Shown: one piece after another, positions 41,034 through 47,293 of the stretch
Numbering within the stretch: the first letter of the stretch is position 1
Layout of the letters: every line of letters starts with the position of its first letter
From: Bacteroidales bacterium
GTDB lineage: Bacteria > Bacteroidota > Bacteroidia > Bacteroidales > UBA932
Assembly: GCA_022648685.1 (NCBI GenBank)
Contig: JALCMW010000011.1
Coordinates: forward strand, 6,401 to 70,400
Direction of reading: 5' to 3'
DNA length: 64,000 nucleotides
Program-made: the position numbers and the translations under genes
The notes under the pieces: generated by a model
Told to the model about the DNA's origin: nothing
The model's input: the letters and a program-made list of their open reading frames with translations, nothing else
Database searches by the model: none

Positions 41034-43460
41034 ATGTATCTTTCGGAACTGAAAACAGGAGAGCAAGCGGTAATAGTCAAGGTAAACGGACACGGTGGTT
41101 TCCGCAAAAGACTCATTGAGATGGGCTTTATCAGCGGAAAGAAAGTAAAGGTGATTCTCAATGCCCCGCTGAAAGATCCGATAGAATACGAAATCATAGG
41201 ATATAAAATATCATTAAGGCGGGAAGAAGCCGAACAAATCGAAGTAATCAGCGAAGAAGAAGCGAAAGAAGCGATAGCGACAAAAGAATTCGACGAACCT
41301 GTCATTGACAATGAAGAAGAGGAACAACAGCAGCTTGACGAAATGATGTCGTCCCTCGCCGAAGAAAGGCATCATGTGATACGGGTCGCCCTGGTCGGAA
41401 ACCCGAACTGCGGCAAAACTTCCCTTTTCAACGTGGCATCCGGAGGCCATGAACATGTAGGCAACTACAGCGGAGTGACGGTCGATGCCAAAGAAGGAAG
41501 ACTGGAATACAAACAATACAAATTCGTAATAGTAGACCTCCCTGGAACTTATTCCCTTTCCGCCTACAGCCCAGAAGAACTTTATGTCAGGAAAAATCTT
41601 ATAGAAAAGATGCCCGACGTAGTTGTAAACGTGGTGGATGCATCCAACATCGAAAGGAATCTGTATCTGACAACCCAGATTATAGACATGAATCTGAGGG
41701 TCGTCATGGCCCTGAATATGTATGATGAACTGGAAGCCAAGGGAGACGAACTGGATATCAGGCAATTGGGCTATCTGCTCGGAATGCCTGTCTGCCCTAC
41801 CGTAAGCCGTGACGGAAGAGGGATAAACGAGCTGTTCGACACCATCATAAAAATATACGAGCACAACGATCCTCATCTTGCCAGACATATCCATATTAAT
41901 CACGGAGAAGAACTGGAAAAAAGCATAAACCACCTCAAATCCGTTATCCAGGTAAATGAGCAGATCAGACATAAATATTCCACAAGGTTCCTGACGATAA
42001 AATATCTGGAAAATGACAGCGAAGTGGACAAGTTGGTGGAAGAACTGCCCAACAATGCAGAAATCAAAAAAGCCAAGGCATACGAGGACAAAAGGATAGA
42101 AGGACTTCTGCATTCCACTGCGGAATCCGCCATCGTCGATGCAAAATATGCCTTCATCCAAGGGGCCCTTGCGGAAACTTACAAACCTCATATAGAAGAA
42201 AAACCCAAACGGACAATCACCGACAAGATAGACGCGATCGTCACAAACAAATGGATAGCATTTCCTGTTTTCATCGCCATACTTTATCTGATTTTCCAGG
42301 CCACTTTCACTTTGGGCAATTATCCTATGTTGTGGATAGAATGGCTGGTCGAAAAAATAGGAATGCTTGCCGGAACCTTCATGAAAGCCGGATGGCTCAA
42401 GGATCTGATCACAGACGGAATAATAGGGGGCGTCGGAAGCGTACTCGTTTTCCTTCCTAACATCCTGATTCTCTATTTCTTCATTTCCCTGATGGAAGAT
42501 TCCGGATATATGTCCAGAGCGGCGTTCATCATGGACAAACTTATGCACAAGATCGGACTTCACGGGAAATCATTCATTCCGATGATCATGGGCTTCGGAT
42601 GCAACGTCCCTGCAATAATGGCGACAAGAACGATCGAAAACAGGAAAAGCAAGCTGATCACCATGGCGATCATTCCCTTCATGTCCTGCTCCGGCCGCCT
42701 GCCGATTTTCATACTGCTTTCGGGAATCTTTTTCGGATCCCATGCCGCTCTCGTCCTGCTGGGAATATATCTTCTCGGCATTGTAATGGCCATAATCTCG
42801 GCGAAAGTAATGAGCAAATTCGTCAAAGACGATGATCTTCCGTTCGTGATGGAACTGCCTCCTTACCGGGTACCGACAGGAAAAGCCATATTCCGGCACA
42901 CGTGGGAAAAGGGAAAACAATATCTGGAAAAGATGGCGACTACCATTTTGCTGTTTTCCATATTGATATGGTTCCTCGGATATTTTCCCAATCATAACAA
43001 ATACGGGTCCGTCAGGGAACAAAAAGAGAATTCATATATAGGATATATAGGAAAAGGCATAGAGCCGATAATGGAGCCTTTGGGATTCAATTGGAAAATG
43101 GGTGTCGGAATCCTTTCCGGCATAGGAGCCAAGGAACTGATAGTAAGCACTATGGGTGTCATGTATTCGGGAGAAGGACAGGAAGCGGGAGCCGATGAAA
43201 CGACAGTGTCTTCAGGCAAGGGAACTTCCGCATTGCCTGAAGACACGTCACTACAAAGGGGATTGAAAAACGACATCAGCACTGCAGGAGCTTTGGCATA
43301 CATGGTCTTCATATTGCTGTATTTCCCGTGCATCGCCACTTTTATCGCCATCAAAAACGAATCCGGCGGCTGGAAGTGGGCTATAGGCACTTGCATATAT
43401 ACGATCGTGATCGCCTGGATCATGGCTTTCGCCACTTATCACCTGTTTCTCCTGTTTTGA
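41034..43460 (+). CDS. feoB: Ferrous iron transporter FeoB with fused N-terminal FeoA domain
   Basis: FeoA (RKRLIEMGF...APLKDPIEY...ISLRREEA); G1 GNPNCGKT, GNYSGVTV, DLPGTYS, ALNMYD; membrane Gate motifs (GFGCNVPA, PFMSCSGRL, FVMELPPYR, YFPCIAT). Confidence 0.97.
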   Translation: MYLSELKTGEQAVIVKVNGHGGFRKRLIEMGFISGKKVKVILNAPLKDPIEYEIIGYKISLRREEAEQIEVISEEEAKEAIATKEFDEPVIDNEEEEQQQLDEMMSSLAEERHHVIRVALVGNPNCGKTSLFNVASGGHEHVGNYSGVTVDAKEGRLEYKQYKFVIVDLPGTYSLSAYSPEELYVRKNLIEKMPDVVVNVVDASNIERNLYLTTQIIDMNLRVVMALNMYDELEAKGDELDIRQLGYLLGMPVCPTVSRDGRGINELFDTIIKIYEHNDPHLARHIHINHGEELEKSINHLKSVIQVNEQIRHKYSTRFLTIKYLENDSEVDKLVEELPNNAEIKKAKAYEDKRIEGLLHSTAESAIVDAKYAFIQGALAETYKPHIEEKPKRTITDKIDAIVTNKWIAFPVFIAILYLIFQATFTLGNYPMLWIEWLVEKIGMLAGTFMKAGWLKDLITDGIIGGVGSVLVFLPNILILYFFISLMEDSGYMSRAAFIMDKLMHKIGLHGKSFIPMIMGFGCNVPAIMATRTIENRKSKLITMAIIPFMSCSGRLPIFILLSGIFFGSHAALVLLGIYLLGIVMAIISAKVMSKFVKDDDLPFVMELPPYRVPTGKAIFRHTWEKGKQYLEKMATTILLFSILIWFLGYFPNHNKYGSVREQKENSYIGYIGKGIEPIMEPLGFNWKMGVGILSGIGAKELIVSTMGVMYSGEGQEAGADETTVSSGKGTSALPEDTSLQRGLKNDISTAGALAYMVFILLYFPCIATFIAIKNESGGWKWAIGTCIYTIVIAWIMAFATYHLFLLF

Positions 43461-43635
43461 TCAGGAGTCCTTCCTGTCCTGATTCCGTATTTTTTCTGTC
43501 TTGATCTGCGAGGTACCGCACCATATATGCCGGAATCATAGATACAGTCCTTTCCCTTTACTGATTACTTATACTTTAATTATTACTTATCCTTTTTTCT
43601 GCCTTTCTCTTATTTATTCCTTCTCTTATTCCTTT

Positions 43636-43674
43636 TAAAAAAAGTATTCGGGTTCCTAAAAAAAAGTATTCGGG
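43636..43674. repeat. Short direct duplication T(A)7-8GTATTCGGG x2 at the end of a pyrimidine-rich intergenic tract
   Basis: Copies at 43636-43652 and 43657-43674. Confidence 0.8.
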
Positions 43675-43678
43675 AGAT

Positions 43679-44203
43679 TTAGAAAGCGATGCCGAAAGAC
43701 ATCAATATCAGCTCCCTCTTGTAATTATACTTTTCCCCTTGCGTGTTTATTTCTCCGCTGTCATACGAGAAAGAACATTCCATGAAAAATCTTGAAACGT
43801 TCACTCCGACACCCGGGCATATCAGCAATCCGTGTCCGTGGGGCTTTGTGAATACGAATCCGGACTTGACATCGGCAAAAGGGCTGATAACATTATTCTT
43901 TGTGAAGGAATGCTTCATCTCCACAAAAATAGGAACAGTCCAATCATTGCCGGAATGGAAGTAGCAGCTTGTTCCCGTCCCCAGGTATGTACCTTCCCCG
44001 AAACCGTAACCAATGGAAGCAGAAGGAGCTATCTCAGATCCCTCGGTACCCCTTGTAACCAAAGCGGCACCTCCCATACTTGCGTAACCTGTTATTCCCT
44101 TCTTGAAGAAAGGAGAAGACATTCTTGTCTGAGCCGATGCGATAACGCCGGCAAATGTAAGTAAAACGAAAAATGCAATTTTATACAATACTTTCGTATT
44201 CAT
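43679..44203 (-). CDS. Small outer-membrane beta-barrel protein, function unknown
   Basis: Signal peptide, alternating amphipathic strands and C-terminal Phe (LILMSFGIAF). Confidence 0.7.
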   Translation of the reverse strand: MNTKVLYKIAFFVLLTFAGVIASAQTRMSSPFFKKGITGYASMGGAALVTRGTEGSEIAPSASIGYGFGEGTYLGTGTSCYFHSGNDWTVPIFVEMKHSFTKNNVISPFADVKSGFVFTKPHGHGLLICPGVGVNVSRFFMECSFSYDSGEINTQGEKYNYKRELILMSFGIAF

Positions 44204-44340
44204 GATTTTTGTTGATTATTTATTATAAAGATACTACTTATCAGCAAAAAAGCACTCTCAATAGCAGATAATCTTGTCTTTTTCCTGATTTTTGCCCGCC
44301 GGTCAGTTCTATTTATCCAAGAAACCTGTCAATTCTATTC

Positions 44341-44538
44341 CATTCAGGTCGACTAGTCTTTCAGATCTTTCAAGTCATCCAGGTCAGTCCTATTCATTCA
44401 GGCCATCCAAGTAGTCATCCAGATCAGTCAGGCTATCCAGATCAGTCCTATTCAGTCAGGCTATCCAGATCAGTCCTATTCAGTCAGGCTATCCAAGTCA
44501 TTCAGGCCATCCAGATCATCTAGGTCAGTCATATTCAG
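44341..44538. repeat. Degenerate tandem repeat of 9-mer units (ATYCARRKC-like) containing 2.5 perfect copies of a 28-bp unit
   Basis: CAGTCAGGCTATCCAGATCAGTCCTATT at 44425-44452 and 44453-44480, partial copy at 44481-44495; flanked by ATCCAGGTC / ATCCAAGTC / ATTCAGGCC variants. Confidence 0.85.
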
Positions 44539-45026
44539 ATAAGAAAAGGAAACAGTCTTTCTTCTTTTCTTTTTTCCCAAAAGCTACGCAACGTTCTGGA
44601 TCCCCCTCCAGTATCTGGAGCCCTAGAAGCGTTGATAATACGGTAGCTACGAGGTTCCATTATTAATTTCCTTACAGTATTTGGGATCCGCAACCATACG
44701 AAACATAGGCTAGAAGGAAAATCCAATGCACTAAAAAGAAACTTTTTCAAGGACAAACCCTTTTTAGTTATCCAACTTTTGGGGTGCGCTCCAACATTCA
44801 AATAGTCGACCTAAATCAGGAGACTACAAATATCCAATACATAAACGGTTGTCATTACATTTTGACCAGAGAAGGTCTTAGACTATATGTGACATCAAAA
44901 TATTGATAACCTGACTAATCATGATAAATATATACAAGGCTTATATTGCAGTAAATACTCCCCCGGAATGATACACACGAAATAATGATATTCACAAACA
45001 AAATGACAAGCCATGAAATCGGCACA

Positions 45027-45238
45027 GGAGAAGGGTGAAGTGTGTGATGCGTCTGAATCCGTGGCCGCCCGTGGCCTCGTGAACGGGTGGCCCAGACGAG
45101 CATCGATGAAGACGAAACCGGAAGAGGAATGCAAAATCGTCGTTCAGTTTTGGCAGTGTACCGACAAACAGCGATAGTGAGTCGGGGACGGGATGAGCGC
45201 TCTGCGCGAAGATGACGGCGCACACACACTTCCCCTCC
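45027..45238 (+). ncRNA. Candidate ~210-nt structured RNA or miniature element (unclassified)
   Basis: Closing stem GAAGTGTGTG (45037-45046) / CACACACTTC (45223-45232), extendable to about 14 bp; internal hairpins 45046-45104, 45130-45155 and 45161-45185; GC-rich within an AT-rich non-coding background. There is no expression evidence. Confidence 0.4.
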
Positions 45239-45472
45239 GCTGACCTTTTACTTAATCAGCAAATGTCGTTTATCTAATGACTACTCATATAGCAACCGGA
45301 CTCGTCCGTGTAATCGGTAACTTTAAAGTACTTGATTTTGGCAAAATAAAATACCCCACAAAAAGAGAAAACCGGCATTAGTAAATTTCAATAAGAATTT
45401 TCTAACAACGGAAAGAACAAATAACACTTAGTTCGTTCCTATTTTAAGAAAAATTCTTCATTTTTTAACGGA

Positions 45473-45760
45473 AGGCGGCCATGCTCCTGAATGTCTAAGT
45501 GGCTGTAAATGGCTACTTTAGCTCTTACCAAGCATGGACAGGTCGGCTATTTTAAGGGGGGCTGGCCATGGTGCAAAAGAGTTAAATAACTAGTTGTCAA
45601 CTATTTAACCCTTAGAGAGCATGGCCGCCTCCGGACTTTTTTTACAAATTCTACCGTCTTCTTCGAGTAAAGCGTTATCTCTTCCGGACATTTTTCACAG
45701 ATTCAGCCGTCTTCGAGTAAAGCATGGCCAACTCCGACATTTTTCACGTTTCCTACAAAT
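45473..45760. repeat. 14-bp inverted repeat enclosing a palindrome, followed by three imperfect ~50-bp tandem units
   Basis: AGGCGGCCATGCTC (45473-45486) / GAGCATGGCCGCCT (45617-45630); GTTAAATA-N13-TATTTAAC at about 45581-45609; units start at 45618, 45671 and 45721 (AGC-N10-CC(G)GAC-wTTTTTy-AC...CCGTC..TTCGAGTAA). Confidence 0.8.
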
Positions 45761-45812
45761 TTCCCAGAGAGGTGGCTGGATGAAGTGGAATAAGGGAAAT
45801 ACAATAAGAAAC

Positions 45813-45841
45813 AAAAAAGGACGGCCATATAAAGCCATCCT
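45813..45841 (-). terminator. Intrinsic terminator of the tRNA-Leu transcript
   Basis: The - strand reads AGGATGGC-loop-GCCGTCCT followed by a U-run, 18 nt downstream of the tRNA. Confidence 0.8.
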
Positions 45842-45859
45842 GTATCGAATATTAAAAAG

Positions 45860-45943
45860 TGCGGATGGTGAGACTCGAACTCACACGGGCGCAATGCCCA
45901 CTACCCCCTCAAAGTAGCGTGTCTACCATTCCACCACATCCGC
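45860..45943 (-). tRNA. tRNA-Leu (anticodon GAG), CCA not encoded
   Basis: Reverse complement GCGGATGTGGTGGAATGGTAGACACGCTACTTTGAGGGGGTAGTGGGCATTGCGCCCGTGTGAGTTCGAGTCTCACCATCCGCA: acceptor stem GCGGATG/CATCCGC, anticodon loop TT-GAG-GG, long variable arm, GTTCGAG T-loop. Confidence 0.97.
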
Positions 45944-45996
45944 CGATATGTTTCCAAGAAGTCCGCTGAAAGCGGATATCCGTTGAAACGGGATTG

Positions 45997-46027
45997 CAAA
46001 AATAGGTATTTATAGAGAAATACCAAA
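45997..46027 (-). promoter_or_regulatory. Primary-sigma promoter of tRNA-Leu
   Basis: The - strand reads TTTG-N19-TATTTTTG, a full consensus match. Confidence 0.8.
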
Positions 46028-46136
46028 ATTTTAATGCCAAATTTTATAACCTCGATATTATTTCGTAATTTTACGGCGTATTCCTCGAGCAGGATTACAC
46101 AGGTATTATTAATAAAAATTTAAAAACAGATTCACA

Positions 46137-46745
46137 ATGGCTGTAAAAATTCGTTTGCAACGCCACGGTAAGAAGAATTTCGCATTCTTCCACATTGTTG
46201 TGGCAGACACTCACGCACCTCGTGACGGTCGTTTTATCGAGCAATTGGGCTCGTACAATCCGAACACGAACCCTGCAACTATCGTCCTTAATGAAGAAAG
46301 GGCATTGGATTGGCTGAAAGTAGGAGCCGAAACGACTCTGGTCACTCGCAGGATATTATCTTACGAAGGGATTCTTCTGAGAAAGCATCTTGACGGCGGA
46401 ATCGCCAAAGGAGCTATCACAAAGGAAGAAGCGGACAAGAGATATGCGGACTGGAAGGCTCACAGAGATGCCAAGGTCAATGCAAAGAAAGAAGGAATCG
46501 ACAAGGCTGCCGCCGACAAAGCGAAGAATGCCGAAGAAGCAGAAGCCAAGGTAAATGAGGCCAGGGCGGAAGAATTGGCCAAGAAGAAAGCCGAAGTGGA
46601 AGAAGCTGCAAGAAAGGCGGCTGAAGCTGCTGCAGCTGCCAAAGCCGCAGAAGAAGCAGCAAAGGCGGCCGAAGAAACGGATCAGGCTGCAGAAGGTGCT
46701 GCCGAGACTTCAGAACCGGCATCCGAGGAGAAACCTCAGGCTTGA
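46137..46745 (+). CDS. rpsP: 30S ribosomal protein S16 with long Ala/Glu/Lys-rich C-terminal extension
   Basis: MAVKIRLQRHGKK...IVVAD..APRDGRFIEQLGSYNP. Confidence 0.97.
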   Translation: MAVKIRLQRHGKKNFAFFHIVVADTHAPRDGRFIEQLGSYNPNTNPATIVLNEERALDWLKVGAETTLVTRRILSYEGILLRKHLDGGIAKGAITKEEADKRYADWKAHRDAKVNAKKEGIDKAAADKAKNAEEAEAKVNEARAEELAKKKAEVEEAARKAAEAAAAAKAAEEAAKAAEETDQAAEGAAETSEPASEEKPQA

Positions 46746-46750
46746 CAATT

Positions 46751-47293
46751 ATGTCCGAAGCAGGTAAAAAAGACTTGCTGAAGATTGCCAGGGTACTCAA
46801 GGCGGACGGTACCGAAGGCGGACTCATATTGAGTCTGTACGACGATATCTTTTCCCAAAATATTGATTTAAAAGAACCGGTATTCGTTTTTTATGACGGA
46901 TTGCCGGTTCCTTTTTATATAGAGTCCCGGGAACCGAAAGGCGAGGCCAAAATCAAGGTAAGGCTGACGGATATCCGCGATCTGGGAGATGCGGAAGAAA
47001 TCAGGGGCCGAGATGTTTTCATTCTGAAGAAAAGCAATGGAAACCGGAATGAATCGGAATTCATAGGAAACGGAATCAGTGATCCGGAAGAAATTACCGG
47101 ATGGACCGTAACTGATCCCGGAGGCAAGAAGATAGGCAGGATCACAGGATTCGAGGATATTCCGGGGAATCCCTGTATCTATATAGAAACAGATAACGGA
47201 CAAAAGATGGTCCCCCTCAATGAAGATCTCATCACAGCCGTAAATAAAGAATCCGGAATAATCTCGATGAAAATTCCGGAAGGTCTATTATAA
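46751..47293 (+). CDS. rimM: Ribosome maturation factor RimM
   Basis: IARVLKADGTEGGL, GLPVPFYIE, IGRITGFEDIPGNP, MVPLNEDLI, MKIPEGLL; follows rpsP. I prefer the ATG at 46751 over the TTG at 46742. Confidence 0.9.
   Translation: MSEAGKKDLLKIARVLKADGTEGGLILSLYDDIFSQNIDLKEPVFVFYDGLPVPFYIESREPKGEAKIKVRLTDIRDLGDAEEIRGRDVFILKKSNGNRNESEFIGNGISDPEEITGWTVTDPGGKKIGRITGFEDIPGNPCIYIETDNGQKMVPLNEDLITAVNKESGIISMKIPEGLL

Follow-up and report, generated by a model that had tools for sequence, protein, structure and literature searches.

In the 64,000-nucleotide (nt) stretch of a Bacteroidales genome that was analysed here, referred to as the window, a non-coding island at positions 44204-45858 spans from the start codon of an open reading frame (ORF) of 174 amino acids (aa) to the 3' end of a tRNA-Leu(GAG) gene. 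We found that the right-hand part of this island consists of repeats, here termed M1, M2 and M3, which recur at many other sites in the same genome, and that M2 belongs to a family of palindromic elements whose copies in other genomes also lie in frame within protein-coding genes. In our judgement, with a probability of about 70%, the island is a mosaic of non-coding, dispersed, hairpin-forming repeats that arose by ordinary accretion, and M2 is selfish palindromic DNA of the type known as Rickettsia palindromic elements (RPEs) rather than an RNA gene.

The protein-coding neighbour of the island, located on the minus strand at 43679-44203 according to the ORF list, encodes a protein of 174 aa whose N-terminus resembles a signal peptide and whose C-terminus ends in GIAF; the island is upstream of this gene. 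The protein matched no Pfam family, and relatives of it, all of them weak, were present in 6 genomes of the genus out of 41. On the other side, the tRNA-Leu gene (anticodon GAG; 45859-45943, minus strand) was identified by ARAGORN and scored 52.7 bits with the Rfam tRNA model. This gene has an intrinsic terminator (45808-45841, minus strand), composed of a hairpin at 45841-45818 with a 9-bp stem, followed by TTTTTGTTT. Therefore, ~50 nt at the right end of the island are part of the tRNA gene, and the island proper ends near 45810. The longest ORF between the two genes does not exceed 104 aa, and none of the ten longest ORFs of the island gave a Pfam match at E≤0.01. The island is the largest gap in the window, the remaining gaps being no longer than 235 nt. 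These data agree with a preliminary description of this DNA, made from the sequence alone, which had found no convincing gene at 44204-45859 and no other gap above ~240 nt. A 98-aa ORF on the plus strand (45621-45917), which extends from M3 into the tRNA gene and has no family match, is spurious given its overlap with the tRNA, although a gene caller might annotate it.

The base composition of the island had been described as unusual. CTAG does occur at exactly the five positions that had been named (44353, 44520, 44623, 44710 and 45590), which account for 5 of the 24 sites in the window; the density in the island is ~3 per kb as compared with 0.375 per kb in the window, an 8-fold enrichment. 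CCGG is likewise absent from 44300-44962, as had been noted, but this gap of 664 nt ranks only fourth in the window, after gaps of 1032, 930 and 720 nt, and is unremarkable on its own. Across the window as a whole, CCGG is over-represented (430 sites, 6.7 per kb, as compared with ~2.4 per kb expected from the base composition) and CTAG is rare (24 sites), which suggests a word bias related to methylation or restriction. The abundance of repeats and RNA-like structure that had been reported for the island was also confirmed, as it contains a 28-nt tandem array (44354-44550), 50-nt direct repeats (45618-45744) and inverted repeats. Its predicted folds gave z-scores of only -2.1 to -2.7.

The left half of the island (44204-44761) is unique, single-copy DNA, with a BLAST coverage of 1 in its own genome and no matches in relatives, and it is presumably here that the 174-aa gene has its promoter and leader. 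The repeat search detected within it a minisatellite at 44354-44550, itself a single-copy locus, in which a 28-nt unit, ATCCAGGTCAGTCCTATTCAGTCAGGCT, is repeated ~4.4-7 times. A 14-nt inverted repeat, with one arm at 44342-44355 and the other at 44803-44816, brackets the minisatellite. The second arm falls within M1 (44762-44829, plus strand), which emerged from a self-BLAST of the genome and comprises two end motifs of ~33 nt: M1a, represented by GGGGTGCGCTCCA at 44781-44793 with 16 copies in the genome, and M1b, represented by GTCGACCTAAATCAGGA at 44805-44821 with 8 copies. Elsewhere in the genome both motifs directly flank M3 elements, some of them as inverted pairs, and in some copies they act like terminal repeats for M3; a bare inverted pair of M1a and M1a' was also found at 32535-32562 of contig C14. 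An AT-rich spacer with 35% GC (44830-45027), shared only with a composite copy at 510414-510780 of contig C1, leads from M1 to M2.

M2 (45028-45238, plus strand) is a palindromic element with a conserved apex, delimited by its 12 copies in the genome, the alignment of its family and covariation. Its GC content is 59%, as compared with 44.5% for the window. The arms of the closing stem lie at about 45031-45059 and at 45212-45236, and the core 28-mer, CGTGGCCGCCCGTGGCCTCGTGAACGGG, occupies 45060-45087. In the stem P3, CCCAGAC (45091-97) pairs with GTCGGGG (45182-88), and the stem bears a copy-specific insertion of 77 nt (45100-45176) that sister copies do not have. It is followed by GGGATGAG at 45190-97 and by the stem P4, GCGC-TCT-GCGC, at 45197-45207. 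A second AT-rich spacer (45239-45411), which accompanies M2 and M3 in composite copies, separates M2 from M3 (45412 to ~45760, plus strand), which was defined by ~20 copies in the genome and a consensus fold. M3 consists of two tandem hairpin units of ~70 nt ('CATGGCC' hairpins) joined by a conserved junction of ~40 nt; some copies have three units or inverted neighbours. The order within the island copy is GGCGGCCATG (45471-83), hairpin A, the junction CATGGACAGGTCGGCTATTTTAAGGGGGGCTGGCCATG (45541-70), hairpin B, CATGGCCGCCTCC (45620-32) and a run of seven T (T7), and the right end is formed by three direct repeats of ~50 nt (45618-45744) after the T7 run.

When the island was compared by BLAST with the genome from which it derives (2.43 Mb in 16 contigs, 96.5% complete), 56-58 matches were obtained, and the coverage was 1x at 44204-44760 and 9-20x over M1, M2 and M3. 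The summed depth over M2 and M3 was ~10x in a source-like metagenome. All 12 copies of M2 in this genome, including that of the window, are intergenic. M2, the spacer and M3 recur jointly as a composite of ~0.8 kb at eight loci, and M2 and M3 are found singly and in other contexts too. At all eight loci the orientation of the composite is the same, the adjoining gene being transcribed away from the M2 side, and five of the eight adjoining genes encode Mfa-like fimbrillins. Under the accretion hypothesis, M1, M2 and M3 would have piled up in a permissive gap, extending from the tRNA-Leu terminator to the region where a gene for a small surface protein has its promoter. The composite, with its spacers, would move or be copied as one unit, and recombination among dispersed copies would most likely have delivered it to the tRNA-Leu locus.

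Several other places in the genome deserve mention in connection with these repeats. Three paralogous pairs of genes for Mfa-like fimbrillin lipoproteins were observed (C1:515649-517848, C2:335106-337305 and C3:278141-280127 of genome G000), as well as two large Mfa-like fusion proteins in the same genome (C13:35279-37423 and C2:128252-130768). Upstream of each of these pairs and fusion genes are 0.8-1.2 kb of non-coding DNA carrying the M2-M3 composite in constant orientation. At the start of contig C2 (28-774), tandem repeats of ~305 nt, composed of M1b and a short M2, are present in three copies, and an additional cluster of M3 and M2 is located at the start of the window's own contig (C11:142-786). 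These clusters stand at contig starts, and the repeats evidently break the assembly; numerous further copies were located at contig ends.

The core of M2 is not confined to this organism. Exact copies of the 28-mer are present in more than 116 contigs. These derive from uncultured Bacteroidales of the rumen, the gut and digesters, among them members of Candidatus Cryptobacteroides, Merdivivens, Coprenecus and Egerieisoma. With a covariance model, 34 of the 40 genomes sampled from the genus proved to contain the M2 family, with 1-37 copies per genome, and, under stricter filters, only 4 of 301 genomes across the order did so. The core sequence gave no match in the full-text literature, and M2 is apparently a so far undescribed family of palindromic DNA elements. 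[quoted passage not shown]

Family members have a median length of 128 nt and, in the aligned copies, a constant layout: the closing stem, the core, the hairpin P3, the purine-rich GGGAGGGAU and an optional P4 of the GCGAAGC type. The conserved part, of ~60-90 nt with two short variable hairpins and an invariant CCCGU/ACGGG hairpin in the core, is always located at the tip of a long copy-specific stem. The sequence of the closing-stem arms differs in nearly every copy, yet the arms are still complementary, with a median of 25 paired positions; the median alignment score between the two arms of a copy was 41, as compared with 14 for mismatched upstream and downstream controls. Covariation was tested with 25 copies of the short type. 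Paired cells amounted to 91%, in comparison with 73% in shuffles and 35-49% when the partners were slid by 1-3 columns, and cells in which both partners had changed numbered 112 as against 36 in shuffles. Covarying pairs were found at 10 of 10 positions of the closing stem and 5 of 8 of P3. Strong covariation is thus a property of the M2 family. For M3, RNAalifold recovered only conserved outer and inner stems, with almost no covariation; the variable hairpins of M3 do not align. One P3 pair is G.U in 12 of the 25 copies, and mismatches in the arms are more often of the G.T type (53) than of the A.C type (28), which indicates that the folding strand is a single one, namely the plus strand of the window. 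Among 128 predicted hairpin loops, 77 are triloops, and CGAAG, CGTAG and CGCAG together make up 53, CGAAG alone contributing 38. This C-GNA-G loop type is exceptionally stable in DNA, as in d(GCGAAGC), and unusual among RNA motifs. A reading of the core as a small peptide was considered and rejected, as the variable hairpins change length freely and neither a start nor a stop codon is conserved.

In contrast to the intergenic copies of the window's genome, some M2-family copies of other genomes are genic: of 117 copies, at least 13 are flanked on both sides by orthologous protein sequence in the same frame. Clean in-frame insertions were found in MtaB, MnmA, DnaX (twice), TldD, a UvrD-like helicase, a FAD protein and a methyltransferase. 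Alignment with the MtaB, MnmA, DnaX, TldD, UvrD-like and FAD-protein orthologues of the window's genome showed that the inserts add ~40-80 residues and are located in linkers or loops. For example, the copy of genome G004 (L010:456-1964) is within a 502-aa MtaB-like ORF, and further genic copies are at loci L151, L102, L065, L104, L153 and L057. At least four genomes share the insertion in MtaB, the arms of which have undergone compensatory changes; the two insertions in DnaX are independent, one in each orientation. The genic copies are antisense to the folding strand in 12 of 13 cases, where they are read as ...PPVHEATGGHG..., and it is the antisense orientation that has more stop-free frames.

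Taken together, the wobble pairing of G.T on one strand, the predominance of C-GNA-G triloops and the antisense position of the genic copies suggest that M2 probably acts as a hairpin of single-stranded DNA (ssDNA). Its arms would stay complementary through selection or through correction between arms. We also examined the genes around M2 copies. The orientation of the element relative to its flanking genes was mixed, these being (-,-) in 23 cases, (+,+) in 16, convergent in 18 and divergent in 7, indicating a deficit in divergent, promoter-containing gaps. Clustering of the neighbouring genes at 116 loci revealed no recurrent partner, with the exception of an IS1182-like transposase beside one subfamily. 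In other genomes this subfamily is located directly after the stop codon of the transposase gene; the transposase is absent from the window's genome. At L152:5361-7110, and also at L071, L069 and L110, an M2-type element with the conserved arms GTGGCGGTAGGGTAAGTTTGGATGG comes after a gene for an IS1182-family transposase (DDE_Tnp_1_6 plus DUF772). Such an arrangement could serve to carry the core from one genome to another. In another case, a sheep-gut contig lacks 179 nt that are present in a rumen genome (L062:5877-6055), comprising an M2-family element with flanks of 30 and 14 nt; this is possibly a presence/absence allele with imprecise ends.

Several observations weigh against the interpretation of M2 as selfish DNA. 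In the window's genome we detected neither a transposase for M2 nor a parent insertion sequence, and the ends of 60 M2-family copies showed no target-site duplication, so that we infer mobility from the distribution of the copies. The RAYT/Y1 transposase (PF01797) was absent from this 96.5%-complete genome, while control genomes scored positive. No known mechanism of transposition accounts for the copy-specific arms, and a test for replication-strand bias against local GC skew in one genome of 8 contigs gave an uninformative 12 of 22 copies. The invariance of the core is in part an effect of ascertainment, as the copies were gathered with the exact 28-mer. A functional RNA would likewise show strong covariation and a G.U pair specific to one strand, and a regulatory role could be the reason why the composite always has the same orientation upstream of fimbrillin genes.

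The island varies between species and strains. The pair of tRNA-Leu and rpsP is conserved in the genus, and in four other species the 3' flank of tRNA-Leu measures 100-210 nt before different genes begin. The far neighbour differs among species (the 804-aa neighbour in genome G015 is not FeoB), and no exact empty site could be defined. When the island was compared by BLAST with relatives, only the M2 core was matched in other species, and M3 had no match there. Restriction to a single strain, which the preliminary description had named among the findings that would refute its interpretation, applies in part to the island as a whole but not to M2, whose core is widespread in the genus. The organism itself is present in metagenomes of bioreactor sludge and landfill. 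A contig of a related strain, from run X9, is colinear with 43905-44793 and then jumps to 45518, so that it lacks 724 nt comprising M1b, the spacer, M2, the second spacer and the start of M3, with M1a joined directly to M3; beyond M3 it runs into unrelated sequence. The minisatellite also differs in length in this strain, 76 nt being replaced by 26 nt. The deletion and the change in minisatellite length show that the content of the island changes from strain to strain; recombination between M3 and M1 copies dispersed in the genome is a plausible cause.

Small repeats appear to favour the 3' flank of tRNA genes. Of the 21 M3 copies in the window's genome, 5 are no more than 1.2 kb away from a tRNA gene, each of them on the 3' side, as compared with ~4% expected by chance. 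Among the 117 M2-family copies of other genomes, 8 are found at up to this distance on the 3' side of a tRNA and 1 on the 5' side. Insertions in this flank may be harmless, or termination there may be useful. In this respect the preliminary description was right to call tRNA 3' ends hotspots, but for small repeats and not for integrase-driven elements; likewise, its proposal of a scar or a non-autonomous remnant of an integrative element holds for the non-autonomous nature of the DNA, but not for the integrative part, as there is no att copy in the window and no integrase among the ORFs of the island, and the repeats are dispersed.

As for other explanations, M2 might be a new mobile or self-renewing element, in which a folded ssDNA apex of ~60-90 nt is recognised by a putative enzyme. 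The element would either generate at each site a fresh stem of perfect complementarity or enter the tips of palindromes that already exist. This model would account for the unique arms of each copy, for cores nested in other palindromes and for the tolerance of in-frame copies in essential genes. We regard it as rather unlikely. Alternatively, M2 may represent a new class of self-processing RNA, as discussed below.

It is also possible, in our opinion with a low probability, that the island is a long regulatory region upstream of the 174-aa gene, perhaps a phase-variable switch, in which M2 and M3 form a functional cassette. The shared orientation of the eight composites and the five fimbrillin genes among their neighbours are in line with this, and fimbrillins are often phase-variable in Bacteroidales. 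In addition, M3 carries inverted repeats of 13-14 bp that are ~135 nt apart. However, the fimbrillin loci are paralogous, and the upstream region that they share may have been copied by segmental duplication. The occurrence of M2 and M3 alone and in other contexts argues in the same direction, as does the lack of a recombinase gene nearby, and the contigs of a 65x metagenome, the form in which it was searched, contained no inversion joint at the locus. An inversion of M2 or M3 at tRNA-Leu was considered as a candidate, but the sole joint on the opposite strand traces to C7:31272-31420.

The preliminary description had also proposed a non-coding RNA locus transcribed on the plus strand. According to this hypothesis, a functional structured RNA, such as a self-cleaving ribozyme of a new class or a small RNA that binds protein, would be specified by M2 or by the entire right half of the island, and the copies within genes would have arisen as by-products. 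Part of this proposal is well founded: covariation is strong in three helices with conserved junctions, the G.U pair in P3 and the excess of G.U over A.C in the arms favour the plus strand, and M3 ends in a stem and the T7 run on that strand. Moreover, multi-copy status and a variable closing stem are typical of bacterial self-cleaving ribozymes. Other results speak against an RNA. A search with Rfam 15 of the window at 43000-47000 and of eight other M2 loci found only tRNAs at E≤1, the families GOLLD and ROOL and the ribozymes being among those without a match. The elements are in mixed orientation to their neighbours, the in-frame copies are nearly all antisense to the folding strand, and the loops are mostly GNA triloops, not GNRA or UNCG tetraloops. 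In a true metatranscriptome, a rumen copy had no coverage whereas the neighbouring gene was covered, a comparison that was contig-based and involved ambiguous libraries. We retain the RNA hypothesis in view of its strong structural signal, but consider it improbable.

The idea that the island is an eroded integrative or mobilisable element, similar to NBU1 and once inserted at the 3' end of tRNA-Leu, draws on its position directly 3' of the tRNA gene, its absence from other species and its atypical, CTAG-rich composition, but is very improbable and largely refuted, since the 25-mer (with 3 mismatches allowed) and the 15-mer (with 2) of the tRNA 3' end occur in the 64-kb window only in the tRNA itself, the ten longest ORFs show no remnant of an integrase, mobilisation or other gene in Pfam, the tRNA keeps its own terminator so that the junction is not at the tRNA end, and the content is that of repeats dispersed over the chromosome, which occur at ~20 other sites of the genome, mostly not beside tRNAs.

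If the accretion hypothesis is correct, what appeared as a striking non-coding island is neither a hidden gene nor a prophage scar, and islands of this kind explain contig breaks and strain differences in metagenome-assembled genomes. M2 combines a highly conserved core with stems that vary freely but are always paired, and it can be translated inside essential genes, a property of palindromic elements that has so far been documented mainly in Rickettsia. It thereby offers a natural system for asking how long palindromes survive and stay complementary in chromosomes and reading frames, and which enzyme spreads them. For annotation, it is of practical relevance that M2 copies inflate ORFs and mimic structured RNAs.

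The repeats of the island can be compared with several known systems. The attC sites of integrons are conserved in structure rather than in sequence, being unique imperfect palindromes that fold as ssDNA on one strand. By analogy, M2 would be a structure-conserved palindrome with ssDNA folding on one strand; in attC, however, the ends are conserved and the centre is variable, the reverse of the situation in M2, and neither an integron integrase nor a cassette array is present here. M3 and M1 differ from the REP/BIME elements of enterobacteria by the lack of a GTAG or CGTC tag and of RAYT/Y1, and by units of ~70 nt rather than 20-40 nt. They resemble REP/BIME and the BOX elements of pneumococcus in having modular hairpin units arranged head to tail, in a variable number of units (2-3 in M3/M1), and in being species-specific, located near the 3' ends of genes and prone to break assemblies (PMC3733652, PMC10969869). 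The minisatellite at 44354-44550 recalls BrickBuilt, a minisatellite-containing MITE of Porphyromonas gingivalis with 19 copies per genome and demonstrated promoter activity (PMC4596501). Both are intergenic, spacer-less tandem repeats of ~23-28 nt in Bacteroidales, with a length that varies between strains and small inverted repeats at the ends of their leader and tail segments (PMC4596501), whereas the minisatellite of the island is single-copy. The closest parallel for M2 is provided by the RPEs, palindromic elements inserted in frame in unrelated housekeeping genes (Ogata et al. 2000, 2002, as summarised in PMC10969869). The host of the RPEs is an intracellular alphaproteobacterium and that of M2 is a free-living or gut member of the Bacteroidales, and the copy in the window differs from the genic RPEs in being intergenic. 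According to the same summary, RPE families are conserved over their full length, unlike M2, which is conserved at its apex only and has arms that are unrelated between most copies. In other respects the two are alike: both are palindromic, hairpin-forming, non-coding and multi-copy elements of ~100-150 nt, for neither of which a transposase is known, and both sit between genes as well as in frame within unrelated housekeeping genes, whose proteins thereby gain a peptide loop.

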